Source: Eubacterium sp.
Lineage (GTDB): Bacteria; Bacillota; Clostridia; Lachnospirales; Lachnospiraceae
Reading direction: 5' to 3'
Assembly: GCA_047242425.1 (NCBI GenBank)
Contig: JBKTKJ010000001.1
Span: forward strand, 1,529,120-1,593,119
Length of the DNA stretch: 64,000 bases
Both the position numbers and the translations under genes were made by a program. Numbering within the stretch: the first letter of the stretch is position 1; each line of letters opens with the position of its first letter. The notes under the pieces were generated by a model, which did not search any database, was not told the DNA's origin, and worked only from the letters and a program-made list of their open reading frames with translations. Positions 1,529 to 64,000 of the stretch are shown one piece after another.

Positions 1529-2872
1529 TCAATGATCTATCTCGCCAATAAAATCATAATCATTGGTTCCTGTAACTTTAACTTTGACAAAATCACCTGT
1601 AATTAGTTCTTCCTCCGTGACAATAAATATGTTACTGTCTACCCCCGGAGCATCCATATATGTTCTTCCCATATATGCATTTTCTCCTGATATACGTCCT
1701 TCAACCATCGCAATGAATATCTTTCCAATATATTTTTCAGAATTGTCAAACACAATATCCTGCTGAAGTTCCATAATCTGATTACGCCTGTCAATTTTAA
1801 TCTGCTCATCTATCTGATGCTCCATAACTGCCGCTGGTGTATTTTCCTCTGGAGAATATGTAAAGACACCCAGTCTGTCAAACTCCATCTCATTCACAAA
1901 ATTCATTGTAATATTATGATCTTCCTCAGTCTCTCCGGGAAAACCGGTAATCAGCGTAGTTCTGAGAACAATTCCGGGAATTCTGTCTCTCAATTTCCAT
2001 ATAATTTCCCGTAATTGTTTATTGGTGGTCTTTCTGCCCATTCGCGCCAGAATATTGTCACTGGCATGTTGAATCGGAATATCCACATATTTGCATATTT
2101 TATTTTCCTGTGCAATTACGTCAATCAATTCATCATATATTTCCTCCGGATAACAATAAAGAATTCTGATCCACTGTATTCCGGAAATTTCCGTTAATTT
2201 CTTCAATAATATATGGAGGGATTTTTTTCCATAGAGATCAACCCCATACATTGTAGTCTCCTGCGCAACAAGAATTAACTCTTTCACTCCTCTGTCTGCA
2301 AGCTCCCTTGCCTCTTTCAAAAGAGTTTCCATTTCAACACTTCTGTAATTTCCTCTTATCTTTGGAATAATACAGTAAGTGCAATGTTTATCGCACCCCT
2401 CTGCTATTTTAAGATAAGCATAATTTCCCGGTGTTGACAGATTTCTTGGTGCATTTATCCCTGCCGGCAAATCTATGTCTTTTAAAAGCTGAACAGCTTT
2501 CTTTTTTTGCAAAAATTCCTCTATTGCTTCTACAATGCCGTCAATTGCCGTTGTTCCAATACATATATCTATTTCTGGAATTTCACTTTTAATTTCTTCG
2601 TGATACCTTTGCGCCAGACATCCTGCCAGAACCAAAGCCTTGCAGTTGCCTTCCGCCTTGTATCTTGCCATCTCAAATATGGTATTGATGCTCTCTTCTT
2701 TTGCATCATTGATAAAACAGCAACTGTTTATTATGATAATGTCCGCCTGAGTCTCATCATCTGTAAATTCATAACCGGCAGCCCCTAAAATACCTGACAT
2801 ATGCTCTGAATCCACAAGATTTTTGTCACACCCAAGGGATATGAACAATACTTTCAACTGACTTCTCCTCAT
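1529..2872 (-). CDS. rimO: ribosomal protein S12 methylthiotransferase
   Basis: 447 aa. N-terminal LGCDKNLVDSE MTTase motif, radical-SAM CDKHCTYC, C-terminal TRAM-like region. Confidence 0.9.
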   Translation of the reverse strand: MRRSQLKVLFISLGCDKNLVDSEHMSGILGAAGYEFTDDETQADIIIINSCCFINDAKEESINTIFEMARYKAEGNCKALVLAGCLAQRYHEEIKSEIPEIDICIGTTAIDGIVEAIEEFLQKKKAVQLLKDIDLPAGINAPRNLSTPGNYAYLKIAEGCDKHCTYCIIPKIRGNYRSVEMETLLKEARELADRGVKELILVAQETTMYGVDLYGKKSLHILLKKLTEISGIQWIRILYCYPEEIYDELIDVIAQENKICKYVDIPIQHASDNILARMGRKTTNKQLREIIWKLRDRIPGIVLRTTLITGFPGETEEDHNITMNFVNEMEFDRLGVFTYSPEENTPAAVMEHQIDEQIKIDRRNQIMELQQDIVFDNSEKYIGKIFIAMVEGRISGENAYMGRTYMDAPGVDSNIFIVTEEELITGDFVKVKVTGTNDYDFIGEIDH

Positions 2873-4794: not shown

Positions 4795-6531
4795 ATGGCT
4801 TTCGATGGAATCACTGTTTCTGCACTGGTCGCAGAATTTAATGATAAATTATCCGAAGGACGAATCTATAAAATAGCGCAGACAGAATCGGATGAACTGA
4901 TGCTTACAATCAAGGCAAATAAATCACAGTTTCGTATGCAGATTAGTGCAAATGCAAGTCTTCCACTGATATATCTGACGGATACGAACAAGCCCAGCCC
5001 AATGACCGCCCCGAATTTTTGTATGCTTTTGAGAAAACATATTAATAACGGAAGAATCATTCATATTACCCAGCCTGGACTGGAACGTATTATTGATTTT
5101 GAAATCCAGCATTTGGACGAACTGGGAGATATCCGGACGAAACATCTCATTGTGGAACTTATGGGCAAGCACAGCAATATTATTTTTACCGATCACAATA
5201 ATATGATTATTGACAGTATTAAGCATGTCACTTCTGTTATGAGCTCTGTAAGACAGGTTCTTCCGGGCAAACCATATTTTATCCCTGATACAATGGGGAA
5301 GCATAATCCTCTCGAAACATCAAAACAGGATTTTATGTCTATTGTATTTTCAAAACCAATGCCTTTATCCAAGGCAATTTATACTTCATATACCGGTATC
5401 AGCCCGGCAATTGCGGAAAATCTCTGTTACGAAAACAAACTGGATTCCTCGATGCCTGCAAATGTATTAGTTCATGGAGACCAGAATCTAATCTGGATGA
5501 GTTTTTATCAAATGATTCATAAAATTGATTATAAAAATTTTACTCCTGTTATATATGAAAAGAACGGAAAACCAGAAGAATTCAGTGCTCTTCCTTTATC
5601 AACCTACTCCGACTGTTCTTCCACGGATTATGACAGTATGAGCAGACTTTTGGAAGATTATTATGCGCGAAAAAATCTCTATACCAGAATGCGCCAGAAA
5701 TCTGTTGATTTAAGGAAAATTGTATCCAATGCACTGGAACGTGACAGAAAAAAATATGATCTTCAATTAAAACAGATGAAAGATACAGATAAAAAAGATA
5801 AATATAAAGTCTATGGAGAATTGCTTACAACCTATGGCTATTCCATTGAACCGGGTACCAGAGTGTTTGAAACAGTGGATTTTTATACCGGAAAAGATGT
5901 AAAGATTACATTGGATGACACGCTTTCCCCGATTGATAATGCCAAAAAGTTTTTTGAGAAATACGCCAAACTAAAACGTACACAGGAAGCATTGTTCGAT
6001 ATCATAAAAAACACAAAAGCTTCCATTGATTATCTTGAATCCATTAACGTTTCAATCGATATGGCATCCAATGAGTCTGATTTAAAAGCAATCAGCGAAG
6101 AGCTTGTTCAGACAGGATATATAAAACATAGAAACGGTAAAAACAAAAAAGAAAAAAATACAAGCAAACCTTTGCATTTTCTTTCCTCTGATGGCTTTCA
6201 TATGTATGTGGGAAAAAACAATCTTCAAAATGAAGAGTTAACTTTTAAGGTTGCTACCGGAAATGACTGGTGGTTCCATAGTAAAACCTTTCCCGGATCC
6301 CATGTTATCGTAAAATGTGATAACAAAGAGCTGCCTGATGCAACTTTTGAAGAAGCCGCAAGACTTGCTGCCCATTATTCTAAAGGTGCTACCCAGGATA
6401 AGGTGGAGATCGATTATATCCAAAAGAAACATGTAAAAAAAGTGGCTGGAGCAATGCCGGGATTTGTTATATACCACACCAACTATTCTATGACAATATC
6501 ACCGGATATAAGTGGGATTGAAGAGATTTAA
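4795..6531 (+). CDS. rqcH: ribosome quality control protein RqcH / fibronectin-binding protein A family (NFACT)
   Basis: 578 aa. NFACT-N-like N-terminus (MAFDGITVSALVAEF), coiled-coil middle, C-terminal DWWFHSKTFPGSHVIV NFACT-R motif. Confidence 0.85.
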   Translation: MAFDGITVSALVAEFNDKLSEGRIYKIAQTESDELMLTIKANKSQFRMQISANASLPLIYLTDTNKPSPMTAPNFCMLLRKHINNGRIIHITQPGLERIIDFEIQHLDELGDIRTKHLIVELMGKHSNIIFTDHNNMIIDSIKHVTSVMSSVRQVLPGKPYFIPDTMGKHNPLETSKQDFMSIVFSKPMPLSKAIYTSYTGISPAIAENLCYENKLDSSMPANVLVHGDQNLIWMSFYQMIHKIDYKNFTPVIYEKNGKPEEFSALPLSTYSDCSSTDYDSMSRLLEDYYARKNLYTRMRQKSVDLRKIVSNALERDRKKYDLQLKQMKDTDKKDKYKVYGELLTTYGYSIEPGTRVFETVDFYTGKDVKITLDDTLSPIDNAKKFFEKYAKLKRTQEALFDIIKNTKASIDYLESINVSIDMASNESDLKAISEELVQTGYIKHRNGKNKKEKNTSKPLHFLSSDGFHMYVGKNNLQNEELTFKVATGNDWWFHSKTFPGSHVIVKCDNKELPDATFEEAARLAAHYSKGATQDKVEIDYIQKKHVKKVAGAMPGFVIYHTNYSMTISPDISGIEEI

Positions 6532-10064: not shown

Positions 10065-11294
10065 TTAATTTTTTGTGATTTCTTCTAACATATTTTCGGC
10101 AAATATTCCATAACCCTTTGTTGGATTATTTACCATCACATGTGTCACAGCACCGATAATCTTTCCGTTTTGTATAATGGGGCACCCACTCATTCCCTGC
10201 ACAATTCCGTTGGTTTTCTCCAAAAGTTTTTTATCTGTTATTTCTATCACAAGATTCTTTTCCTTAATATTATAATGAATTTCTTCAATATTGATATCAT
10301 ATCTGTTTATTTTTCCGTCGATTATAAACTGTATCTGTGCTGCTCCTTTTTTTATTTCAGAATGCAGCCCCATTTCCATTTTCTGAAATTTATAATCATT
10401 AACCATAGTGTGATCCACCGTTCCAAAAAGTCCGCAATTGGTATTTGCTGAAATCTGACCCACAACATTCTGTTCGTTATATGCAATTGTCCCGCAAAGT
10501 CCTCCTGGTTTTCCTTTTTCTCCTTTTTTTATTCCCCATATACTGGCATTATATATGGTTCCGTTATTGGATGACAAAAGTTTTCCAGTGTCAATATCAC
10601 TGATTCCATGACCCAATGCAGAAAATTTATTATCTTCTGTAATAAATGTCATAGTTCCTATTCCCTGTGAGTCATCCCTGACCCATATCCCCAGCATATA
10701 TTCTCCTTCACTATTTTTTACCGGTTTAACTGTGATCTTTCTAATGGCATCCTCCCCCTTTATGGTAAGCGTCACGTTTTTATCTCCATTTTCATTAATT
10801 AAATAAGACAACTGGGCTTTATTGCTCACAGCGATTCCATTAAACCCGGTAATATATTCCCCGGCATTTACTTTTCCTTTTGCAGGAGAACTTTTTTCGC
10901 CTTTTTCATTTAGTAATTCTCCCGAATTTATAATCATTACTCCTTGAGTTTTCAAATACATTCCTATGGGAAGTCCAACCGGATAAACATATGTTTTATC
11001 TACCACTTTAACTTTAGTTTTCTTTAAAGAAATTATTCCAAATAATTTGTATTTACCTTCATAATTTCCTGTATCGCCTGAATAAATGTTATTTTTGCCT
11101 GAAAGATTAATTTTGTTATTATTTTCTACATCAAGAGATACCGGCATTGAAAATTCATATTTAGTTACCTGATTGGAATTCACAAAAATAGTGTTGGGAA
11201 GATTATCATTAACATACAAAATTCCCGAAACAATAATAATCAGCAGCGCAATTAGTATAGATGCCACCAAACATTTTCTATATTTTTTTCTCAT
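10065..11294 (-). CDS. spoIVB: stage IV sporulation protein B (S55 signalling peptidase)
   Basis: 409 aa. N-terminal TM, PDZ-like middle, catalytic region GMSGCPIIQNGKIIGAVTHVMVNNPTKGYGIFAENM. Conserved position after recN. Confidence 0.92.
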   Translation of the reverse strand: MRKKYRKCLVASILIALLIIIVSGILYVNDNLPNTIFVNSNQVTKYEFSMPVSLDVENNNKINLSGKNNIYSGDTGNYEGKYKLFGIISLKKTKVKVVDKTYVYPVGLPIGMYLKTQGVMIINSGELLNEKGEKSSPAKGKVNAGEYITGFNGIAVSNKAQLSYLINENGDKNVTLTIKGEDAIRKITVKPVKNSEGEYMLGIWVRDDSQGIGTMTFITEDNKFSALGHGISDIDTGKLLSSNNGTIYNASIWGIKKGEKGKPGGLCGTIAYNEQNVVGQISANTNCGLFGTVDHTMVNDYKFQKMEMGLHSEIKKGAAQIQFIIDGKINRYDINIEEIHYNIKEKNLVIEITDKKLLEKTNGIVQGMSGCPIIQNGKIIGAVTHVMVNNPTKGYGIFAENMLEEITKN

Positions 11295-29342: not shown

Positions 29343-30455
29343 TTATTTTATATTGGTAGCTATACACATAATTGCAATGCTTAATATAAAAAGGATACCA
29401 TTGCTTATAATTACTCTTGTCAAAAGCTTTGTTCCATTACAGAGACATCCAAGGCTGTTAATCATTCTTTTATCCGCAACCGGCTGAATAACTGCCGTTA
29501 TTATTTGAAGGGATATGGAATAAAGCTGAATTTTAAAAAAGGGGACGAGACAAATCAATATGATAATTATAATTCCAAAAGTTCCTATTGTGTTTTTAAT
29601 AAGATTGACGGAACCCAGTACAATTCCGGTCATTGCGTCCGTGCCATCCCCTATTACCGGTAAAGTTCCAATCATTTTTCTTATTGTTGTATTTTTCGCT
29701 CCATCCACAGCCGGCAAAACCAGCCCCTGAATAATATTCAGCCCGGTTACAATTCCAATTAATGATCTGTTTATAAATTTAATTAAGTTACAGATCACCT
29801 GTGCTGTTTTCGATAAAAAGTCTTCCTGAGACACATTATTCACCAGACTAATTGCCATGTATACTTTTATTAAAGGAATAATGACTTTTAAAAACACAAA
29901 TTCTGATACACCAATGATAACTAATGTTAACTGATAAAAACCTGCCGCCGATACCTGTCCCATAATTGCCACCGACAAAAAATATGAAGGTATAATCCCT
30001 CCTATAAATTCCAGCAAAAGCTTCACAAAATCAGAAGTTAAAATGCAAAAGGACTCAAACAGAGTTACCATTATGGTTATTGCGACCAGATAACATATAT
30101 AAAATCCGGTATCGGATATGTTATCTTTGGAAAATACGTTGGCAAAATTTGTAAAAAACGCCGACAAAATAATTATTAACAACAGATTTCCAATTGTTTT
30201 TTCCACAAGAGAAATATTTCCAAATGTTTTACTGTACCAGACTTTTGCCGTTTCTTTTACAACCTCAGTTATCTTTCCCTCCATAATTTTTTTGATCATC
30301 TCATTAAAATTTATGTCATCATATCCGCCATTTCTCAAAACTTCACCACTGTCTGACAAATCAAAGTCATCCATGGTAAGCACATCCTCTGCCATAACTG
30401 TACCCGGCAGCAAAAATATCAATAAGATTGTAAAAAGACATATTTTTTTTATCAT
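29343..30455 (-). CDS. spoIIIAE: stage III sporulation protein AE
   Basis: 370 aa polytopic membrane protein with signal-like N-terminus. Operon position. Confidence 0.9.
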   Translation of the reverse strand: MIKKICLFTILLIFLLPGTVMAEDVLTMDDFDLSDSGEVLRNGGYDDINFNEMIKKIMEGKITEVVKETAKVWYSKTFGNISLVEKTIGNLLLIIILSAFFTNFANVFSKDNISDTGFYICYLVAITIMVTLFESFCILTSDFVKLLLEFIGGIIPSYFLSVAIMGQVSAAGFYQLTLVIIGVSEFVFLKVIIPLIKVYMAISLVNNVSQEDFLSKTAQVICNLIKFINRSLIGIVTGLNIIQGLVLPAVDGAKNTTIRKMIGTLPVIGDGTDAMTGIVLGSVNLIKNTIGTFGIIIIILICLVPFFKIQLYSISLQIITAVIQPVADKRMINSLGCLCNGTKLLTRVIISNGILFILSIAIMCIATNIK

Positions 30456-54233: not shown

Positions 54234-55970
54234 CTATTGTTTTTCAATTATGTTATATAAATCGTAATAAATCCCCTGCCGGTCCATTAATTCCCTGTGC
54301 GTTCCCTGTTCCTCAATTCCATTATCCGTAAGTACTAAAATCTTTTCAGCATTTCTTATAGTTGACAGCCTGTGGGCGATAACCATTGTGGTTCTGTTTT
54401 TCGCCAGTTTTTCCATGGATTCCTGCACTATTTTCTCACTTTCATTATCAAGAGCTGATGTTGCCTCGTCAAAAATAAGAATCGGAGGATTTTTAAGAAA
54501 GACTCTCGCTATGGACAATCTCTGCTTTTGTCCTCCGGACAGTTTGATACCTCTCTGTCCTATATCTGTATCAAATCCATTGGGAAGTGACATAATAAAA
54601 TCATAAGCGTTGGCCTCTTTTGCAGCGGCAATAACTTCTTCTTTCGTAGCATCCGGTCTTCCATAGCGAATATTGTCATATACAGTTCCCACAAACAAAT
54701 AAACATCCTGTTGAACGATACCAATATTATCTCTTAAATTCTTTAATTTAAAATCTCTGACATCAATCCCGTCAATTGTAATACTGCCATTTGAAACTTC
54801 ATAAAAACGGGGAATCAAATTACACAAGGTCGTTTTACCTGCTCCTGACGATCCAACAAGAGCAATATAGGACCCTGCCTCTATCTCCAAATCAATGTGT
54901 TTTAACACCCTATGCGCATTGTCATTGTAGCGGAAAGAAACATCACGAAACCTAATGTCTCCTCTTACATGATCAGCAGTTATGGCGTTTTCTTTATCTT
55001 GTATTTCAGGCTCTATGGAAAGAATCTGTAGAAATCTTTCATATCCTGAATATCCATTCTGGAACTGCTCTGTAAAATCAATCAGGGTTTTAATCGGGTC
55101 TGTAAAAATATTAATATACAAAAGAAATGTAATCATATCCGTAACTGATACCATGTCCCTTGTTATCATAATGCCCCCGGCAATAATCACAATCAGATTT
55201 ATCATGGTAGTAAAGGCTGTAAGACCTGAATTATAACCACCCATATACTTATAATTATTCTTCTTCGCCTTAAGAAAATCATCATTTCCAATTTTAAACT
55301 TTTCATTTTCCAGTTCTTCATTAGCAAAAGATTTAACAACTCTTATTCCTGAAAGATTGTCCTCAATCTGTTCATTAATCGCCGCAATCTTTATTCTGTT
55401 CATTCGGAATGCGCGCTTCATCTTTTTGTTAAAGAAATATGCATATACTAACATGAAAGGAACAAGCAGAAAAGCTGCCAGTGCCAATTTTACGTTAATA
55501 CTTAAAAGAATCACAAGAGCTCCAATGATTTTTATAATGGATATGGTTACATTTTCAGGTCCATGATGTAACAGCTCTGTTATATCAAACAAATCTGAAG
55601 TAATTCGGGACATTAACTGACCCACCTTTTGATCATCGTAAAAGGAATAAGACAATTTCTGAAAATGCGCAAAAATCTCCGCTCTCATATCATATTCAAT
55701 CTTTGCTCCCATTACATGCCCGTAATTAGAAATATAATAATTGCAATAGCATTGAAAAAGTATCAATATTGTTATAACAACTGCAATAATAATCAATTGT
55801 TTTTTGACCTCTTCTGTCGAAAAATATATTAACGTTGATGTTACATATCTTACTACCAATGGTATTACAAGAGCTATAGCGGAGGCAAATATGGCAAATA
55901 CCATATCTGCAAAAAATACACCTCTATATGGCTTATAATAAGATACCAGTTTTTTTAGATTTTCTTTCAT
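54234..55970 (-). CDS. ABC transporter ATP-binding protein/permease (type I exporter half-transporter)
   Basis: 578 aa. 6-TM N-terminal domain, [34 protein letters not shown]. Confidence 0.9.
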   Translation of the reverse strand: MKENLKKLVSYYKPYRGVFFADMVFAIFASAIALVIPLVVRYVTSTLIYFSTEEVKKQLIIIAVVITILILFQCYCNYYISNYGHVMGAKIEYDMRAEIFAHFQKLSYSFYDDQKVGQLMSRITSDLFDITELLHHGPENVTISIIKIIGALVILLSINVKLALAAFLLVPFMLVYAYFFNKKMKRAFRMNRIKIAAINEQIEDNLSGIRVVKSFANEELENEKFKIGNDDFLKAKKNNYKYMGGYNSGLTAFTTMINLIVIIAGGIMITRDMVSVTDMITFLLYINIFTDPIKTLIDFTEQFQNGYSGYERFLQILSIEPEIQDKENAITADHVRGDIRFRDVSFRYNDNAHRVLKHIDLEIEAGSYIALVGSSGAGKTTLCNLIPRFYEVSNGSITIDGIDVRDFKLKNLRDNIGIVQQDVYLFVGTVYDNIRYGRPDATKEEVIAAAKEANAYDFIMSLPNGFDTDIGQRGIKLSGGQKQRLSIARVFLKNPPILIFDEATSALDNESEKIVQESMEKLAKNRTTMVIAHRLSTIRNAEKILVLTDNGIEEQGTHRELMDRQGIYYDLYNIIEKQ

Positions 55971-56032: not shown

Positions 56033-57166
56033 TTATTTCCACTTCAATGAATATGCTCCACTACTTAAAGAATTATTTCTGGAAATTTTAATATAATATG
56101 TTCCCTTATTAACTTTTCCATATGTAGTGCTGTATGTAAGGCTCAATGTGTGTGTACCACCATTGTTTGTATAAGATCCTACTTTCTTTCCACCTTTCGT
56201 ATATACAGTGATCTTAAGACCTCCTGTAATATCTCCTCCGAAAGTGAGTGTTACCTTTTTCTTTTTCTTTACAGAGAACTTATACCAGTCAGCTGCCTTG
56301 CTGCCAGGTAAAATTGTTCCTTTTGCTGTCTTCTTTGCTTTAACTGCAACTGCTTTTTTCTTTTTAGCACCACTCTTTTCTTTTATCGCTGTATTCTTTA
56401 CAGAAATACTCTGAAGATTTCCAGCGCTTGTACCACTTGTTGTAACAAGGAAATAATAAGTTGTTCCTTTCTTTACGGCAAAAGTAAATTTGTTGCCGTT
56501 TGAAGTAGAAACAAACTCCTCTCCAGATAATGCTTTTTTCTTTGCATTCATCAAAGTTAAATAATTGCTGTACTGATACGGAAGAGTCACTGTAACTTTT
56601 CCTGTCTTTTCAGCTACATACTTAAAATAGAACTTGTCTGAACCACTATTTCTGTAATAAGTAATCGTCTGACCTGATTTGATTGTCTTATCTGTATTGG
56701 TATACTGACTTACTGTTAATGTAAACGCATTTGTAAATACGGATTCATCATATTTGGAATAATAGCTGTAGAATTTCAAATAATATGTTCCTGCGTTGCT
56801 TACTGATATGTACCCTTCTCTGCTTGTGGATCCTGTATCAGAACTTCCATAAATGGTAAGTCTGTTGGTGCAGGCTGCATCTGTATAAACATATGCATTA
56901 ATATCCTTTTCCAACTTTGTGTAATTAACATTAATCTTAATTGTTCCCGCTGCACTTACCTTTAATGGAATAATTACCCCACACTCATTGTCCGGAAGTG
57001 TTGAAGTATTTGTGTAGGAATAACTCTTTGTTATGCCATTTTCATTTCCAAAATACTTTGTTGGAACGGTTACTGTAGCTTCTGCCGCAGATACGATAAC
57101 TGTCATTGCAAGCATCATAACAGTTACTGCCACTGCTGAAACAAGTGTTTTGATTGTTCTTTTCAT
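56033..57166 (-). CDS. secreted protein with three pre-peptidase C-terminal (PPC)-like beta-sandwich modules
   Basis: 377 aa with signal peptide (…VIVSAAEA). Recurring GTYY(L/F/I)K motifs and ADWYKFSV...GAYSLKW, typical of PPC domains. No catalytic domain seen. Confidence 0.6.
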   Translation of the reverse strand: MKRTIKTLVSAVAVTVMMLAMTVIVSAAEATVTVPTKYFGNENGITKSYSYTNTSTLPDNECGVIIPLKVSAAGTIKINVNYTKLEKDINAYVYTDAACTNRLTIYGSSDTGSTSREGYISVSNAGTYYLKFYSYYSKYDESVFTNAFTLTVSQYTNTDKTIKSGQTITYYRNSGSDKFYFKYVAEKTGKVTVTLPYQYSNYLTLMNAKKKALSGEEFVSTSNGNKFTFAVKKGTTYYFLVTTSGTSAGNLQSISVKNTAIKEKSGAKKKKAVAVKAKKTAKGTILPGSKAADWYKFSVKKKKKVTLTFGGDITGGLKITVYTKGGKKVGSYTNNGGTHTLSLTYSTTYGKVNKGTYYIKISRNNSLSSGAYSLKWK

Positions 57167-57226: not shown

Positions 57227-58435
57227 CTACATAAGACCCTCAAGAGTATTTCTAATAGCCTTGATAAAATCTTCTGTATTCAGTTTTTTCTTATTTTCAA
57301 GTGTTGAAATAAGATATAAATCACCTGTCATCTCGCCGTTTTCAATTGTATCAATACAAGCCTTTTCAAGCTTGTCAGCAAATGACATGAGTTCAGGAAG
57401 ATTGTCAAGTTCACCACGTTTTCTCAGTGCTCCTGTCCATGCAAAAATTGTAGCAATCGGGTTTGTTGATGTTTCCTCTCCCTTTAAATATTTGTAATAA
57501 TGTCTCTGTACTGTACCGTGTGCTGCTTCATATTCATAATAGCCATTCGGTGAAGCAAGTACAGATGTCATCATTGATAATGAACCAAAAGCTGTTGCAA
57601 CCATGTCTGACATAACGTCACCGTCATAGTTCTTACAAGCCCAGATATATCCGCCTTCTGAACGCATTACTCTGGCTACTGCATCATCGATTAATGTATA
57701 GAAATATTCTATACCTGCAGCATCAAATTTATCTTTATATTCTGCTTCAAAGATTTCTGCAAAAATGTCTTTAAATGTATGGTCATATTTTTTAGAAATT
57801 GTATCCTTTGTAGCAAACCATAAATCCTGTTTTGTATCCAACGCATAATTGAAACAGCTTCTTGCAAAACTTTCAATGGAACCATTCAGATTATGCATCC
57901 CCTGAATAATTCCCGGTCCGTCAAATTCATGAATCAGTTCTCTTGTCTCTTCTCCCGCTTCATTGGTATAAACAAGTTCTGCTTTACCGGCTGCCGGAAT
58001 CTTCATTTCTGTTCCTTTATATACATCACCATATGCATGTCTTGCAATTGTAATAGGTTTTGTCCAATTCTGAACATAAGGCTCGATTCCTTTTACAATA
58101 ATTGGTGCTCTAAATACGGTACCATCAAGAATGGCTCTGATTGTTCCGTTAGGGCTCTTCCACATTTCCTTTAAATTATATTCAGGCATTCTTGCTGCAT
58201 TCGGCGTAATTGTTGCGCATTTAACTGCAACACCATATTTTTTTGTAGCCTCTGCCGAATCAAATGTTACCTGATCGTCTGTCTGGTTTCTGTAATCTAA
58301 CCCCAAATCATAATATTCTGTCTTTAAATCAACGAATGGTAATAACAATTCATCTTTAATCAATTTCCAAAGAATTCTTGTCATTTCATCTCCATCCATC
58401 TCAACAAGTGGAGTAGTCATCTTAATCTTTTCCAT
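57227..58435 (-). CDS. icd: NADP-dependent isocitrate dehydrogenase (eukaryote-like subfamily II)
   Basis: 402 aa. [31 protein letters not shown]. Confidence 0.94.
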
Positions 58436-58514: not shown

Positions 58515-59423
58515 TTAATTCCTTTTAAAATAAAGCATTTTTTCCGGGTTTATTCTGCCCCATCCCTGTCTGTTTTTATCCATTTTCATATCAATTGCAG
58601 TATTCTTTATTATTTTTTTACATTCCACATTGGAAAGTTCAGGATATTGCGACAGTAAAAGGCACAACGTGCCCGAAACTATGGGAGTTGCCATAGATGT
58701 TCCGCTTTTTGTAACGTATGCATAATTTTTTTTCCATAAACTGCAGCAACTATAGATCATATTGGCAGGTGCCACAACATCCGGCTTTTGTATGCATTCA
58801 GAGGTAGGACCTCTCCCCGAGTAATTCATTGTAATCTTACCATTGACAATCATCTTTATGTTATCATTCAATGCACCTACGGTAATTACTTTTTTGCTGT
58901 CTCCCGGTGTGGAGATAGTATTAATTCCCGGTCCGTTATTTCCTGCCGCAGCAACAACCACATATCCCATATCCCATAAAAGTTCAACAGCTTCCACCAG
59001 CCTTTTATTCTGTTCTCCTTCATGTCCAAAAGTACCAAAAGAAATATTTACAACTTTAATGTCCATATATCTGCCATTATCTATAATCCACCATATTCCA
59101 TCTATTACATGATCCTCTTTTCCTATTCCCTTATGATCCAGAACTTTTATAGATACTATATTGGAACGGGGCGCTACCCCTCTAAACATTCCTCCGGATA
59201 AAACTCCGTTCCCTGCAATAATCCCTGCCACATGGGTTCCATGACCTTCATCATCATAATTTTTATTTTTATTATTTACAAAATCCTTAAAACCAATAAT
59301 CCTATCATCAAAATCCGGATGTTCTGAAATTCCAGAATCCAAAACTGCCACAGTTACTCCCTGACCCATGATTCCTCTTTGGTGCAAATTATTAATTCCA
59401 AGCATCTGTCTTACTTTTCTCAT
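58515..59423 (-). CDS. S8 family (subtilisin-like) serine peptidase without signal peptide
   Basis: ORF track 58515..59456 (TTG). ATG at 59421-59423 (MRKVRQMLGI) has AAGGAA 7 nt upstream. Catalytic triad contexts VAVLDSG, HGTHVAG, GTSMATP. Size and lack of a leader resemble Bacillus intracellular serine protease. Confidence 0.85.
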   Translation of the reverse strand: MRKVRQMLGINNLHQRGIMGQGVTVAVLDSGISEHPDFDDRIIGFKDFVNNKNKNYDDEGHGTHVAGIIAGNGVLSGGMFRGVAPRSNIVSIKVLDHKGIGKEDHVIDGIWWIIDNGRYMDIKVVNISFGTFGHEGEQNKRLVEAVELLWDMGYVVVAAAGNNGPGINTISTPGDSKKVITVGALNDNIKMIVNGKITMNYSGRGPTSECIQKPDVVAPANMIYSCCSLWKKNYAYVTKSGTSMATPIVSGTLCLLLSQYPELSNVECKKIIKNTAIDMKMDKNRQGWGRINPEKMLYFKRN

Positions 59424-59555
59424 TATGCAATTCCTTGTATTCATACGTTTATACAATAATATATGACAATTTTTATTTCAGTTTAAAACAATTTGTAAAC
59501 AAGACAGGCTTTGCCACATATTATTTAGTGTAATCAAAATTTAGGGAGAATTATC

Positions 59556-59795
59556 ATGAGTGATTTAGCAGCAACAAACTGTGGATGCGGTTGTGAAGGA
59601 GGAAACAATAACTGTTTATTCCTTATCCTTATTCTCTTATTCTGTGGCGGCTGTGGCTGTGGTAACAATAACGGATGCGGCTTCGGTGGCGGAAATGACT
59701 GCTGTAGCATAATCTGGATTATTTTACTTCTCAGCTGCTGTGGAAACGGCAATAATGGCATCTTTGGTAATAACAGTTGCGGTTGCGGCTGCTAA
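59556..59795 (+). CDS. 79-aa Cys/Gly/Asn-rich protein with two hydrophobic helices (unassigned; YjcZ-like architecture)
   Basis: GGGAG SD 7 nt upstream of the ATG. MSDLAATNCGCGCEGGNNNC LFLILILLF CGGCGCGNNNGCGFGGGNDCC SIIWIILLLS CCGNGNNGIFGNNSCGCGC. Confidence 0.6.
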   Translation: MSDLAATNCGCGCEGGNNNCLFLILILLFCGGCGCGNNNGCGFGGGNDCCSIIWIILLLSCCGNGNNGIFGNNSCGCGC

Positions 59796-59982
59796 TTGAT
59801 GACGACAATCTATACGAATACGATTTTCAGTGTTTGTTAACCGGTATTCTTAAAGAGTATGAAGTAAGTAATGTGAACTTATTCATTTTACTTGTCATCA
59901 TAAGCATTTAAGTTTATGAATTTGCATAAGTTTAATAAGCAGCCAAAAGTATGATTTCTAGTTGATGGGGGATTACAGCCTT

Positions 59983-60351
59983 ATGGAAAATGAACAGTTA
60001 AAGCAAACAAAATTCGATTCCATGGTTACAAACAAGAATATGCAGTTAGCCAAGGCTGTAATTCCTTACATCGACAACAGAATCGGAAATTATCTTGGTA
60101 TGTATATAAAATTTAAAGAATTGCAGAATGCTGCCCGGATCAATTCAAATGTTGCTGTTGCTGCCATGAATGCTGACAAGCATAAGGAAAATATTGGGAT
60201 GGAAAGCATGTTTGAGGATATTAAAGATTTCCTCAGCGATGACGAAAGAGAGACCATTGATACCATTATGACAATGATGGAAATGATGAATATGGATGAT
60301 GATGCCAAACAGGATTTTATGGGAAGTTACATGAATATGTTTGGTATGTAA
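59983..60351 (+). CDS. hypothetical small helical protein with Met-rich C-terminal tail
   Basis: ORF track 59962..60351 (TTG). ATG at 59983 (MENEQLKQTK) follows GGGGGA by 10 nt. No family recognised. Confidence 0.55.
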   Translation: MENEQLKQTKFDSMVTNKNMQLAKAVIPYIDNRIGNYLGMYIKFKELQNAARINSNVAVAAMNADKHKENIGMESMFEDIKDFLSDDERETIDTIMTMMEMMNMDDDAKQDFMGSYMNMFGM

Positions 60352-60380
60352 TGAATCAAATTGTAATAAAAGGAGGTAAA

Positions 60381-60674
60381 ATGATTAATAACAAATGGAT
60401 GGATGACCCTGTTCTCTCAGGTGTTTCAAGTGAAAAAATGGAGATTCTGACCAAAATACTGGACAGTTCAAATGGTATGGAGCCCAAACAAATGCTTACA
60501 TACTTTATTCAGGAGTCCAACAAAGCTTCAAAAAATGGTATTAATTTCACCGATGCCGAAACTGATGCTATTTTAAATGTTTTAAAGACCGATATGACTC
60601 CTGAAGAAATCAGGAAAATTGATACGATTAAACGAATGGTCAATATGTTGTCAAAGAAAAAAGGGCGTATATAA
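60381..60674 (+). CDS. hypothetical small helical protein (shares IDTI motif with preceding gene)
   Basis: ORF track 60351..60674. ATG at 60381 (MINNKWMDDP) follows AAGGAGGT closely. Confidence 0.55.
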   Translation: MINNKWMDDPVLSGVSSEKMEILTKILDSSNGMEPKQMLTYFIQESNKASKNGINFTDAETDAILNVLKTDMTPEEIRKIDTIKRMVNMLSKKKGRI

Positions 60675-60690
60675 CGCCCTTTCCTTTTAC
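60661..60690. terminator. bidirectional terminator
   Basis: aagggcgt-atata-acgccctt stem overlapping the stop at 60672-60674, followed by TCCTTTT. Convergent with the next gene. Confidence 0.65.
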
Positions 60691-61797
60691 TTATCTCTGT
60701 CCTCCAATCGCTTTCACAGTCTCCTTTAATTCTTCTTCCGATTTACAATAAGTCCACTTATACATATCCCGTTCTGAATTTTTGATAAAAAGTTTTCCGT
60801 TTTTGTATATTAAATTTTTGGATGTATATCCATAATATTTTTTTAATTTTTTAACCAGATCCTTTCCTCCCTTAAAACTATACGCATCCTTCTTTTTGGA
60901 ATTCTTCTTATATTGCATCACAACAGTATATTCTGCAGCCATTCCTCCCGGGCTGCAATTTGTTACCAACGCACATCCCTTATACAATCTGCCTAATTTT
61001 ATTTTCTGAACCACATATCTTTCAAGAAAACATTCATAATGAAATGTCTGTCCGGTTTTTTCGTTCACTAAATCTATGTAAATAATATGATTATTTTTAG
61101 ACTTTAAAGAAAAAGTTCTTTTCTTTGTTATGTTTTTATTTATATATGAATTTTTTGTGTCATGATATACTGTTATTTTTTTTGCTTTCCATCCCTTTGC
61201 AAGAAACAACTCTAATTTGACCTTTTTTCTTACATTGGTATAAATGGAACCACAAACAGAATGTTTCTGGGATTTATTTAACTTTTTTCCTCCAATCTCT
61301 AATTTTTTAATAGGAGTACCCTTTAATACTGTTAACTGTTTGGATACTGTAACTGAATTTCCCTGATCATCGGAAATAGTACAGCTAATAACTGTCCTGC
61401 CGCCTTTTTTTACTTGAAAAATATTTCGGCGTTCCAAAACAGGATAGGACGGTACCGAACAATCACCTGTAGATTCATAATAATTAACATCCTTATATTT
61501 TGCTATATTTTTATCACTTGACTTCCATTCGTAATGAAGTTTTTCGTATTCTTTATCCTCTTGTACTTTTCCGCCTGCATTTTCCTTGTTGGGATATCCT
61601 TCCTTTGACAGATAAAACTCTGCCTCTTGCTCAAATTCATAGATATATTCGGGCCCTTCTATTGTTATTCCATTTAACAATGGGTTATTGTTTGTTTCTC
61701 CAGCGGACACACTCAATGAATGCACCAGTATTCCCAAAACAGACATCACCAAAAAGCAAATTAAAAATTTTGATAATACCCCAAATAGTTTCTTCAT
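60691..61797 (-). CDS. hypothetical secreted/anchored Lys-rich protein
   Basis: ORF track 60691..61857. ATG at 61795-61797 (MKKLFGVLSKFLICFLVMSVLGILVHSLSVSAGE) has AGGAG upstream. No family recognised. Confidence 0.5.
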   Translation of the reverse strand: MKKLFGVLSKFLICFLVMSVLGILVHSLSVSAGETNNNPLLNGITIEGPEYIYEFEQEAEFYLSKEGYPNKENAGGKVQEDKEYEKLHYEWKSSDKNIAKYKDVNYYESTGDCSVPSYPVLERRNIFQVKKGGRTVISCTISDDQGNSVTVSKQLTVLKGTPIKKLEIGGKKLNKSQKHSVCGSIYTNVRKKVKLELFLAKGWKAKKITVYHDTKNSYINKNITKKRTFSLKSKNNHIIYIDLVNEKTGQTFHYECFLERYVVQKIKLGRLYKGCALVTNCSPGGMAAEYTVVMQYKKNSKKKDAYSFKGGKDLVKKLKKYYGYTSKNLIYKNGKLFIKNSERDMYKWTYCKSEEELKETVKAIGGQR

Positions 61798-61944
61798 AAC
61801 TGCAGTCTCCTTATTTCTTCTTTCCTGTATCATATCCATAATAAAATACATTTTCATAATTCTATATATAATAATCTCTAATACGTGGAAAATGTTAACC
61901 CCCAGTATAGTTCATTAAATTGAAACCATACTCATCATCACAAA

Positions 61945-62247
61945 TCATAATCCGTGTACCATTTGAATGATTACGTTTAATACATGCGTTTCATTTTTTC
62001 CTAAACATTTACCTCCTTCGTTTTTATTTCCCCAAATATCAATATGATTAATTGGATTACCCGCACAATAAGAATACAGATTCCATGTGCTATAATTATC
62101 CTGTTCTCCCTTATAACTGTCCTGTGTCAGAAAAGTTATGTCATTCGTACTGCAATACATAGCATCCAAATAATAATGTCCTGTCAGTTCATCAGAACCA
62201 CGCCTAAAAGACCTGGCTCTGATTTTCTGATATTTGCTATTTCTCAC
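61945..62247 (-). pseudogene. orphan, degenerate RHS/YD core-end plus truncated toxin tip
   Basis: ...DELTGHYYLDAMYCSTNDITFLTQDSYKGEQDNYSTWNLYSYCAGNPINHIDIWGN parallels the end of the full RHS gene. The DPxGH cleavage motif is degraded to DIWGN and only 26 aa follow. Confidence 0.65.
62054..62194. repeat. RHS core-end repeat, copy in orphan fragment
   Basis: 141 bp aligning without gaps to 63774-63914. I counted 17 mismatches by hand (about 88% identity). Confidence 0.8.
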
Positions 62248-62287: not shown

Positions 62288-63022
62288 TCATTCTTTTTCA
62301 TTTATAACATACTTTCCCATCCTTTTCATCTGGAACTTACATAAAAATCCTGCTACGATAAAAATAACTAGAAAAAACCATGCTGCATAACAACCATATT
62401 CCATATTCATCATCGGAATAAAAAAGTCTTCCCATTCTCCCCCCATGATAAAAGGTGCATATGAAGAAGATCCCAAAATACCAACAAGTTGTATTGCACC
62501 TATAAATGAGCATAAGAAAAAATAAATTTCATCATAATATTTTACCCTTGTCATAATAATTCCACAAAAAATCCCAACTATCACTGAAACAATAACTGCA
62601 AAATCCTTCGCTAGATAATCTATCAACAAGTCCGGTCTATAATTTCCCATTAGTTCGTAAAAGTCAACACCTATCCAGCTAATCAATGCATTTATTAAAA
62701 TATAGCTTACTTGCATGAAAAAGGTAAATGAAATAATAAATATATTTCCTTTTTTTAATTTTCCAAGGAACAAAAAAACTAGGATTCCTATCACTGAACC
62801 AATACATATGGAAATCCAGTGTTCCCATATTATATAACCAACCATTCCTCCAAATAAAGTTCCAAAATATGCCCCGATTATATTTGCAACAAACTTTCGT
62901 GAAAATTTGTATGCAAAAAATCCAATCATAATTCCAATAATTATATTTATTATATTAAATATTTCTGGAATGTGTATTGTGTAATATAAATACAATAGTA
63001 TTTCTTTCCCATCAATCATCAT
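62288..63022 (-). CDS. polytopic membrane protein, candidate immunity protein for the RHS toxin
   Basis: 244 aa, about 7-8 hydrophobic helices. Starts 27 nt after the RHS stop with a GGGGAA SD. The call is positional only. Confidence 0.5.
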   Translation of the reverse strand: MMIDGKEILLYLYYTIHIPEIFNIINIIIGIMIGFFAYKFSRKFVANIIGAYFGTLFGGMVGYIIWEHWISICIGSVIGILVFLFLGKLKKGNIFIISFTFFMQVSYILINALISWIGVDFYELMGNYRPDLLIDYLAKDFAVIVSVIVGIFCGIIMTRVKYYDEIYFFLCSFIGAIQLVGILGSSSYAPFIMGGEWEDFFIPMMNMEYGCYAAWFFLVIFIVAGFLCKFQMKRMGKYVINEKE

Positions 63023-63049: not shown

Positions 63050-64000
63050 TCAAGAAACCGGTAATGTATAATATGGTCCGCTCGGGTTATACACTACAAG
63101 ATTTTCACCAGTAGGATAGTTTATTGCCGGTATTGGCATTCCAACATTATGCGTCTTATAATAAATTTTACTTTCTATCCAAGTTCCTCTTTGACGGATA
63201 TTTGCATAATTGGTCTTACCTGCAAAAGCGTATGTATAACCATCAAGTCTTTTATTCCACTTCTTTGCAAAATTTTTATTTTTTTTATTTGGAGTTGCTG
63301 TATTACACGAAAAAAATGTGGTTTTAGGCATACAAAATGAACTCTTATTAATCTTTTTAATATCTTTTGCTTTCAAAGTTAATTTTTTTTCATTGCTTGT
63401 TCCATCATACCCAAACGCTATTTTTCCTGGAAATCCATGCGCATAAACTGTAAAACTTGTTATTAAATCATCGCTTTCCCTCTCCTTATTAAGATATTTT
63501 ATAAGACTTTTTTTTGAATTAAAATATTTTATTTTGATTTTTTTACTAATCTTTTTCGCTTGTTTTTTAAAACTTTTCTTATCATCTTTTGTCCATCCCT
63601 GATTGGCTATTAACCAAGTGACCTTTTCCGTTGTATCGGATATATCTTTTAAATTTTTTAGTGCAGTTTCTATAAACTCATAATAAAAACCACCACTATC
63701 TTTTTTCGTTTTACTGTATACTCCGCCTGACACTACTATTTTTTCGTGCCCACTTGGATCAATATAAGCTATCGGATTACCTTCACAATACGCATACAGA
63801 TTCCATGTACTATAATTATCCTGTTTTCCTCTATAACTGTCCTGTGTCAGGAAAGTTATGTCATTCGTACTGTAATACCTTGCATTCAAATAATAACGTT
63901 CTGTCAATTCATCATAAACACCTGATGTATAACAAATCTCATTATAAAATTCTTGATTGCCTAACTTCTGTGTTTCTCCATAATCATCATATTTATATGC
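63050..64000 (-). CDS. RHS/YD-repeat polymorphic toxin, C-terminal part (N-terminus beyond window)
   Basis: The frame stays open from 64000 (AYKYDDYGETQKLGNQEFYNEICYTSGVYDELTERYYLNARYY...). The ORF-track M at 63907 is an internal TTG. Core end NPIAYIDPSGHE is followed by a 231-aa variable C-terminal domain. Confidence 0.85.
   Translation of the reverse strand, partial: AYKYDDYGETQKLGNQEFYNEICYTSGVYDELTERYYLNARYYSTNDITFLTQDSYRGKQDNYSTWNLYAYCEGNPIAYIDPSGHEKIVVSGGVYSKTKKDSGGFYYEFIETALKNLKDISDTTEKVTWLIANQGWTKDDKKSFKKQAKKISKKIKIKYFNSKKSLIKYLNKERESDDLITSFTVYAHGFPGKIAFGYDGTSNEKKLTLKAKDIKKINKSSFCMPKTTFFSCNTATPNKKNKNFAKKWNKRLDGYTYAFAGKTNYANIRQRGTWIESKIYYKTHNVGMPIPAINYPTGENLVVYNPSGPYYTLPVS
63774..63914. 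repeat. RHS core-end repeat, copy in the full-length gene
   Basis: See 62054-62194. Confidence 0.8.

Follow-up and report, generated by a model that had tools for sequence, protein, structure and literature searches.

Cys-rich proteins made late in the mother cell, namely CotY, CotZ and ExsY of bacilli and CdeC and CdeM of Clostridioides difficile, are thought to form cross-linked outer layers of the spore. Spore formation drives the transmission of Lachnospiraceae between hosts and, to our knowledge, almost nothing is known of the spore coat in this family, since neither the coat proteins of Bacillus nor those of C. difficile are conserved there. YabG and CspB/CspBA are described as mother-cell proteases that process spore-envelope proteins (PMC10681294, PMC11195116, PMC3789822) and YabG as a cysteine protease of a different family from S8 (PMC13553755). 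The S8 subtilase AprX of Bacillus subtilis is intracellular (PMC8767453). The DNA analysed here (the window) is a stretch of 64,000 nucleotides from Eubacterium sp., family Lachnospiraceae, order Lachnospirales (assembly GCA_047242425.1, contig JBKTKJ010000001.1, forward-strand positions 1,529,120 to 1,593,119), in which a gene for an S8 subtilase lies back to back with a Cys/Gly/Asn-rich gene (the Cys gene) that is followed by three further small genes, designated Y, H1 and H2. Comparison of these sequences across loci leads us to favour, with moderate confidence, the view that the five genes constitute a lineage-specific Lachnospirales sporulation module, expressed in the mother cell, with S8 as a processing protease. 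The parts of this view differ in strength, the small-gene operon being very probably a sporulation operon and a functional tie of S8 to that operon being an evenly balanced matter. The features of the locus, including its predicted promoters, were as follows.

58515-59423, minus strand: S8 subtilase of 302 amino acids, catalytic domain only, AprX/Tk-SP-like, with a match to PF00082
59424-59555: spacer of exactly 132 bp between the divergent S8 and Cys genes
59457-59465, minus strand: mother-cell-type -10 box CATATATTA of S8, 34 nt upstream of the S8 start codon
59495-59524, plus strand: putative sigmaK-type promoter of the Cys gene, with a layout conserved across loci
59556-59795, plus strand: Cys gene, 79 amino acids
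59777-59911, plus strand: gene Y, 44 amino acids, overlapping the 3' end of the Cys gene by 19 nt in another frame
59925-59933, plus strand: weak -10-like box CATAAGTTT upstream of H1, with a last base that departs from consensus in the window clade
59983-60351, plus strand: H1, 122 amino acids, with the start as called in a public collection (P0241)
60381-60674, plus strand: H2, 97 amino acids, with a start supported by the ribosome-binding site AAAGGAGG
60660-60682: intrinsic-terminator hairpin with a stem of 9 bp that includes 5 GC pairs, a loop of 5 and a following T-run

A first-pass annotation of this DNA had reported a protease with an intact D/H/S triad and no signal peptide, a 132-bp control region shared with the divergent Cys gene, two small helical genes beyond the latter that ended at a hairpin, and flanks formed by icd on one side and RHS-type tips on the other. 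All of these observations were borne out, with refinement of the starts of H1 and H2. The same annotation listed four genes, each of which was recovered, and overlooked a fifth open reading frame, the easily missed gene Y. Its remark that the four genes as a set lacked a functional assignment was upheld for the small ones, none of which has an assigned function or a Pfam or NCBIfam match. An open reading frame on the opposite strand (59534-59761) was rejected as a gene, as the conserved ribosome-binding site, start and promoter in this segment belong to the plus-strand gene.

Conservation of the locus was evident from scans performed in two directions. When an alignment of S8 was scanned against one genome per species, relatives were found in at least 583 species-representative genomes, and the neighbours read in the best 80 loci were all housekeeping genes, including icd, a citrate-synthase-like gene with a GntR regulator, ylxM-ffh-rpsP-rimM-trmD-rplS, pnp, lysA, pyk and leuS. 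Thus, S8 is a core Lachnospirales gene and not part of an island, contrary to the earlier description of the locus as a discrete accessory module. When metagenome contigs were scanned for the Cys gene, the hits were dereplicated to 35 groups, and linkage was counted in those groups with enough flank. In 18 of 22 groups, the gene immediately 3' of the Cys gene was H1 or H2. S8 was no more than 8 kb away in 11 of 25 groups, in 7 of which it was directly divergent from the Cys gene. Counted from S8, 19 of 72 loci under strict thresholds, and up to 27 of 80 loci, had the Cys gene within 6 kb, so that over both directions the two genes were 6-8 kb apart or closer in approximately 25-45% of loci. 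The tight unit is therefore the Cys gene, Y, H1 and H2. Of the association of genes suggested in the first-pass annotation, the non-random linkage was upheld while the four genes as one fixed set were not, and the circumstance that it had named as counting against itself, a protease found alone in most genomes, applied locally in S8-anchored loci.

The divergent Cys-S8 pair was nevertheless noted in at least three different downstream contexts, in that it adjoined icd in the window and three other loci (L001, L002 and L004), ylxM-ffh in six loci (L035, L044, L063, L067, L070 and L081) and aroC in four (L008, L016, L017 and L041). Adjacency of the two genes also extended to Vallitalea, Epulonipiscium and Defluviitaleaceae, which represent other families of the order, and in one Vallitalea locus (L023) H2, H1, a further gene designated H3, a Cys-like gene and S8 were all contained within approximately 4 kb. 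All taxa that carried these loci belong to the order Lachnospirales. The H3 protein consists of an H1-like repeat, the Y motif (DGVYEIDExC) and a C-terminal membrane anchor, and was found in Epulonipiscium (L009), in Vallitalea (L023), in Defluviitaleaceae (L049) and in two other metagenome-assembled genomes (L033 and L048). The H3 reading frame overlapped the 3' end of S8 by 10 to 14 nt in L048, L049 and L009 and followed S8 in L033, the four being distant Lachnospirales genomes. These overlaps, together with retention of the Cys-S8 pair in different contexts, render plausible the functional connection between protease and small proteins that was suggested at first pass, in a form other than the one then proposed.

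The assignment of the small genes to a sporulation programme was based on conserved promoter elements. In the window, the predicted promoter of the Cys gene comprised a -35 element GTAAAC at 59495-59500 (with AC at 59499-59500), a 16-nt spacer and the -10 element CATATTAT at 59517-59524, with a SpoIIID-box-like sequence, GACAGG, at 59503-59508 within the spacer. The corresponding layout, G-AAC, 16-17 nt usually with (G)ACAAGC, CATAnnAT(a) and TGTAA, was present in all 26 non-redundant loci, at a distance of 37-59 nt from the ATG, and was retained amid diverged flanks whether or not S8 was adjacent (e.g., in L084, beside a GH3 gene). The ACAAGC sequence may resemble the SpoIIID box of B. subtilis. 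For comparison, a relaxed -10 motif in the same position window was noted in 9.6% of 752 background upstream regions. The strict motif CATANNNTA occurred upstream of 26 of the 33 distinct Y genes of other loci, and CATATATAT or CATAnnnTA was found 30-40 nt before H1 in other loci. Upstream of S8, CATANNNTA was present within 100 nt in 25 of 55 start-aligned orthologous loci as opposed to 66 of the 752 background regions (8.8%), a five-fold excess, and many of the remaining S8 genes carried the near-variant GAATAnnCTAATA. In C. difficile, sigmaE and sigmaK share a -10 element (CATATTAT, CATATAAT) and differ at -35, which is ATA for the former and AC for the latter (Saujet 2013, PMC3789822). By sequence, the Cys gene thus carries a predicted sigmaK-type promoter with an AC -35, and the Y, H1 and about half of the S8 genes carry a CATAnnnTA-like -10 of the mother-cell regulon type. 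That the organism has a sporulation programme was indicated by two genes located elsewhere in the window.

10065-11294, minus strand: SpoIVB peptidase (362 bits, above the cut-off of 305)
29343-30455, minus strand: SpoIIIAE-like protein (133 bits, below the cut-off)

A separate arrangement upstream of S8 was noted in Acetatifactor-like loci (L054, L059, L062, L064, L075, L076, L078 and L080), where a CATAnnnTA box approximately 45 nt upstream of S8 is situated in the loop of a GC-rich hairpin, CTCCCGG...CCGGGAG, that is followed by TTTTTT and the ATG (locus coordinates approximately 5950-6000) and holds the S8 ribosome-binding site in its 3' arm. This hairpin may terminate transcription of the surface-protein gene that lies upstream and, on transcripts that read through, may in addition occlude the ribosome-binding site of S8.

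Membership of the protease in peptidase family S8 was clear from its match to PF00082 (E = 6.5e-56, 190 bits against the Pfam cut-off of 21.8). Among 25 orthologues the triad D29, H61 and S243 was invariant, and oxyanion-hole N162 was invariant or nearly so. The N-terminus MRKVRQMLGINNLHQRG (MRKVRQMLG) lacks the hydrophobic core of a signal peptide, so that its site of action must be the cytoplasm in which it is synthesized, and its start was backed by an AAGGAA ribosome-binding site as well as by the conserved MxxVR start of Lachnospiraceae orthologues. Two orthologues are named 'serine protease AprX' by JGI. The best solved relative was Tk-SP of Thermococcus kodakarensis (PDB 3AFG, E = 2e-57), with which the window protein, like AprX, shares the S8 catalytic domain and its triad. 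Since the alignment with Tk-SP began at chain residue 129, past the propeptide of the latter, the window protein corresponds to the mature catalytic domain alone. Thus, it lacks an N-terminal propeptide of the AprX/Tk-SP type as well as any C-terminal domain, including the beta-jelly-roll domain of Tk-SP, and no separate prodomain gene was present in the 132-bp spacer. Orthologues from Mobilitalea, Vallitalea, Epulonipiscium and Defluviitaleaceae are longer (368-426 amino acids) and carry an N-terminal extension of 70-85 residues (..KYRLPMIDAYVxEV...ITAQ|MNRV), which is propeptide-positioned only, as neither Pfam nor the Tk-SP alignment detected it as Inhibitor_I9 or a Tk-SP propeptide. If members of this subtilase family fold with no propeptide, that would be an enzymology question of interest in itself.

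Other assignments of the protease were considered and rejected. An intracellular-subtilisin-like (ISP/IspA) chain was a poorer match among solved structures (6f9m, E = 1e-25 as opposed to 2e-57 for Tk-SP), and MRKVRQMLGINNLHQRG does not contain LIPY/F, the motif that marks the short N-terminal extension of ISP. The score with the model for mycosins of Type VII secretion (TIGR03921) was 173.8 bits against a cut-off of 278.75, and neither a C-terminal hydrophobic segment in the protein nor ESX genes nearby were found. CspB, CspBA and CspC are subtilases of approximately 560 amino acids with a prodomain, whereas the window enzyme has 302 residues and fell far below cut-off with the corresponding models (68 bits against 1250 for CspBA, 58 against 675 for CspC). 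Matches to IetS of the IetAS anti-phage system were confined to the generic S8 core (profile positions 259-511 of 749), and no IetA-like gene was present nearby; full-length IetS has approximately 750-830 amino acids and is accompanied by an adjacent IetA.

The Cys protein of 79 residues contains 15 Cys (19%), 19 Gly and 13 Asn. It begins with MSDLAATNCGCGC, the N-terminus of eight residues, MSDLAATN, being highly conserved, and continues with two copies of a G/N/C-rich spacer and an aliphatic core of 9-11 residues flanked by Cys. The same internal duplication was evident from the family alignment, each copy consisting of a G/N/C spacer, N-D-S-C, LWIILLL and CCCGG. Runs of CGCGC and CC flank the two hydrophobic segments, for which hydropathy peaks were located at approximately residues 19-33 and 49-63. 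The family comprises 196 clusters at 90% identity, and its members bear the NCBI name 'chorion class high-cysteine HCB protein 13', a misleading label that is corrected here. No match of the Cys protein was found in Pfam or NCBIfam. In distant members (L023, L009 and L048) both aliphatic cores are kept and Cys residues are few. The gene was also found beside chorismate synthase (aroC) in L008, L016, L017, L018, L041 and L084-L086, with S8 nearby or not, and in the last three of these loci was called as 131 amino acids owing to an upstream in-frame start.

In the window, protein Y consists of LLIDDDNLYEYDFQCLL followed by a hydrophobic tail, and its start codon is uncertain, being a TTG with no clear ribosome-binding site. 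The family is marked by the motif LIIDGNAVYEIDEEC, and in most loci Y is situated between the Cys gene and H1. Outside the window clade, the gene normally occupies the opposite strand and usually encodes a Lys/Glu-rich tail; within that clade Y shares the strand of the Cys gene and H1, and the encoded tail is hydrophobic. Purifying selection on Y was indicated by ratios of non-synonymous to synonymous differences (pN/pS) of 0.12-0.36 against four relatives, with the frame open in all and synonymous sites nearly saturated. The hydrophobic tail gave a match below threshold with the YjcZ model TIGR01732 (E = 0.16, 11.8 bits, cut-off 21.35), the only hit of that model.

H1 is all-helical, has a tail rich in Met and contains a duplicated motif (..KAhIPY.. 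and ..E..ID...M..). The family is located 3' of the Cys gene, and none of 84 close relatives is named. The AlphaFold2 model of H1 consisted of helices only and, at a mean predicted local distance difference test (pLDDT) score of 60.6, was too poor for a structure search. An acidic C-terminal tail is conserved in many H1 homologues (...ERMDEQSGNEEYRxGETGADPDGS, with ...EQQQMDG instead in those closely related to the window), among them those of L006, L021, L035, L044 and L070 and P0295, P0302, P0306, P0312 and P0315; such a tail, which could be a processing or targeting signal, is absent from H1 of the window.

As a joined H1 and H2 query returned mostly H1 and four H2 relatives, the size of the H2 family was taken instead from an exhaustive HMMER search, which yielded 346 clusters at 50% identity (E <= 1e-3). 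H2 is helical (mean pLDDT 73.4), and its model gave no Foldseek match in the PDB at E <= 0.001, nor did a PDB profile search give any match below E 0.5. Long Asn/Gln-rich N-terminal extensions of low complexity were noted on some H2 relatives (P0343, P0350, P0382 and P0454). H1 and H2 are remotely related (hhalign probability 69%, E = 4.6e-5), and natural fusions of the two were found (P0361 and P0422). Scans of the Cys, Y, H1, H2 and H3 proteins together with 15 members of the H2 family against Pfam, NCBIfam and PADLOC gave nothing above cut-off and only noise below it, such as a match of 18 bits to ERp29. The small proteins therefore represent four families without known relatives in Pfam, NCBIfam, PADLOC or the PDB.

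Taken together, the module resembles in kind the known sigmaK-controlled coat and assembly genes that are accompanied by a processing protease, and is built from new families. Gene content, conservation, linkage, the fusions, the conserved promoter elements and the lack of any known family for the small proteins are seen in the sequences themselves; dependence on mother-cell sigma factors, location of the products in the spore envelope, cross-linking and action of S8 on the small proteins are inferred from them. Late in sporulation, the mother cell would transcribe the Cys, Y, H1 and H2 genes, and in many species S8 as well, from promoters of the sigmaK or sigmaE type. The Cys protein would then most likely be part of the spore envelope, in a structural or membrane-associated capacity, and its aliphatic cores would mediate self-association at a hydrophobic layer or membrane of the developing spore; in Lachnospiraceae, the protein would become disulfide cross-linked upon lysis of the mother cell. 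H1, H2 and Y would jointly provide it with a helical scaffold or assembly factor. Cytoplasmic S8, made in the mother cell at the same stage, would process or trim proteins of the envelope, either one or several of the small proteins or others. The last step is proposed by analogy with YabG and CspB/CspBA as sigmaE- or sigmaK-dependent mother-cell proteases that trim coat, exosporium or cortex proteins, and the role proposed for the Cys protein by analogy with CotY, CotZ, ExsY, CdeC and CdeM, which are likewise Cys-rich and belong to the late mother cell and the spore surface. In contrast with these proteins, to which it has no sequence similarity, the window-type Cys protein is much smaller (approximately 70-95 amino acids), tandemly duplicated and endowed with two aliphatic cores, and has Cys-poor members outside Lachnospiraceae. 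The YjcZ family of bacilli, which is annotated as sporulation proteins, offers a further parallel in its tiny size and its Gly-rich and aliphatic stretches, but TIGR01732 did not match the Cys proteins at E <= 1.

We put forward more tentatively, and as a doubtful extension of the above, that the locus encodes a hitherto undescribed system for assembly of the spore envelope, confined to Lachnospirales and widespread among them, composed of four new families and matured by a propeptide-less subtilase of the AprX type. The four families, in this still uncertain scheme, would be the duplicated aliphatic-core Cys/Gly/Asn-rich protein, the DGNAVYEIDEEC-motif protein and two related helical repeat proteins. 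Lachnospirales are the dominant spore-forming commensals of the mammalian gut, and the module is relevant to the transmission of gut commensals. Its five genes with predicted mother-cell promoters offer candidates both for coat or assembly proteins and for a processing protease, and may improve the prediction of sporulation capacity from metagenome-assembled genomes.

A number of observations weigh against a sporulation module that includes S8, and several of these would be expected if the linkage reflected descent only, i.e., if the Cys-Y-H1-H2 genes formed a sporulation operon and S8 were a general intracellular housekeeping or stress protease of the AprX type, an ancestral neighbour since separated from the operon in many lineages. 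Thus, S8 is universal and situated amid housekeeping genes, it lacks the small genes within 6 kb in approximately two thirds to three quarters of species, and it was absent from the full 8-kb flanks of six Cys-anchored loci (L103, L106, L124, L149, L151 and L158). The closest characterised relative, AprX of B. subtilis, is not a sporulation gene, being part of the LexA/SigA stationary-phase regulon and dispensable for sporulation (PMC8767453). In contrast with that mode of control, a mother-cell-type -10 box was found on about half of the Lachnospirales S8 genes, the canonical box being present on 45% and absent from the others. The box itself is short and, in the AT-rich window, occurred at the level expected by chance (62 matches as opposed to 59.5 expected), so that reliance was placed on its conservation across loci, and because these loci are phylogenetically related the Fisher tests overstate their independence. 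The relationship between H1 and H3 was weak (hhalign probability 44%), disulfide cross-linking cannot be the ancestral function of the Cys family given the few Cys of its distant members, and literature on the NCBI name of the family and on Lachnospiraceae sporulation proteases included no paper on these genes. Linkage by descent is on the other hand opposed by survival of the Cys-S8 adjacency in at least three downstream contexts and in Vallitalea, Epulonipiscium and Defluviitaleaceae, by the H3 reading frames that overlap or follow the end of S8 and by the five-fold excess of CATANNNTA upstream of S8, and we regard it as a possible but unlikely account.

The remaining explanations concern the nature of the Cys protein. 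In the first-pass annotation, the locus was stated not to fit known classes of ribosomally synthesized and post-translationally modified peptides (RiPPs), and the pairing of a cytoplasmic S8 protease with a small Cys-rich reading frame was nevertheless taken as suggestive of processing. Developed further, this idea would make the Cys protein a precursor that S8 matures into a new RiPP-like or secreted Cys-rich peptide, with H1 and H2 as accessory, immunity or chaperone proteins. S8 proteases do mature cyanobactins and lanthipeptides, with a subtilase (PatA/PatG or LanP) beside a short Cys-rich reading frame in the respective clusters, and the conserved N-terminus MSDLAATN could be a recognition site. 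Such clusters differ from the present one, however, in their modification enzymes, leader and core layout and cluster-tied exporter. No modification enzyme for lanthipeptides, cyanobactins, thiopeptides or sactipeptides was found in the window cluster or in the conserved neighbours of 80 S8-anchored and 80 Cys-anchored loci, and radical-SAM, LanB/LanM/LanC, YcaO, cyclodehydratase and dedicated transporter genes were absent from all of approximately 115 distinct loci; the RimO radical-SAM gene of the window (1529-2872) is a housekeeping gene 56 kb from the cluster. The first-pass statement that RiPP enzymes were lacking thus held, while its companion statement that a transporter was lacking requires qualification, since an ATP-binding cassette (ABC) exporter (54234-55970) is located 2.5 kb from the locus, where it accompanies icd and rex across loci and not the Cys cluster. 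No leader followed by a variable core was detected in the Cys protein, as only eight N-terminal residues precede the repeat and the whole peptide, including both aliphatic cores and their flanking Cys, is conserved. The protease was rejected as PatA/PatG (55 bits against a cut-off of 421), and the Cys gene is a core, single-copy gene that often has no S8 nearby and carries a conserved promoter of the sporulation type. For these reasons a RiPP-like precursor appears improbable. At least as improbable, and perhaps slightly more so, is a small metal-binding or redox-buffering membrane protein of the metallothionein kind, unrelated to sporulation and partnered by the helical proteins. The Cys content of 19% and the CGCGC and CC runs around two hydrophobic segments would suit such a protein, but distant family members have few or no Cys, the promoter is conserved and of the mother-cell type, and the conserved neighbours include no metal transporter or regulator, CutC being beside the gene in one context only.

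The surroundings of the locus in the window include the following.

57227-58435: icd (681 bits)
beyond 61945: RHS-type C-terminal tips, on the flank opposite icd

The hairpin at 60660-60682 overlaps the stop codon of H2 and is situated between H2 and a convergent gene (60691-61857), and could serve both. The product of this convergent gene (minus strand, 388 amino acids, no family match) and that of a gene at 56033-57166 (minus strand, 377 amino acids, with a C-terminal PPC domain, PF04151, E = 1.2e-7) are secreted or anchored proteins, neither of which is conserved beside S8 in other loci. Beyond them, reading frames at 61945-62247, 62288-63022 and 63050-63907, all on the minus strand, include two RHS/YD-type C-terminal tips (..STWNLYxYCxGNPIxxIDxxG..) with different tails. 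The two tips are separated by a protein of 244 amino acids with several membrane-spanning segments, which could be an immunity protein, and the region as a whole looks like an array of orphan toxin tips.

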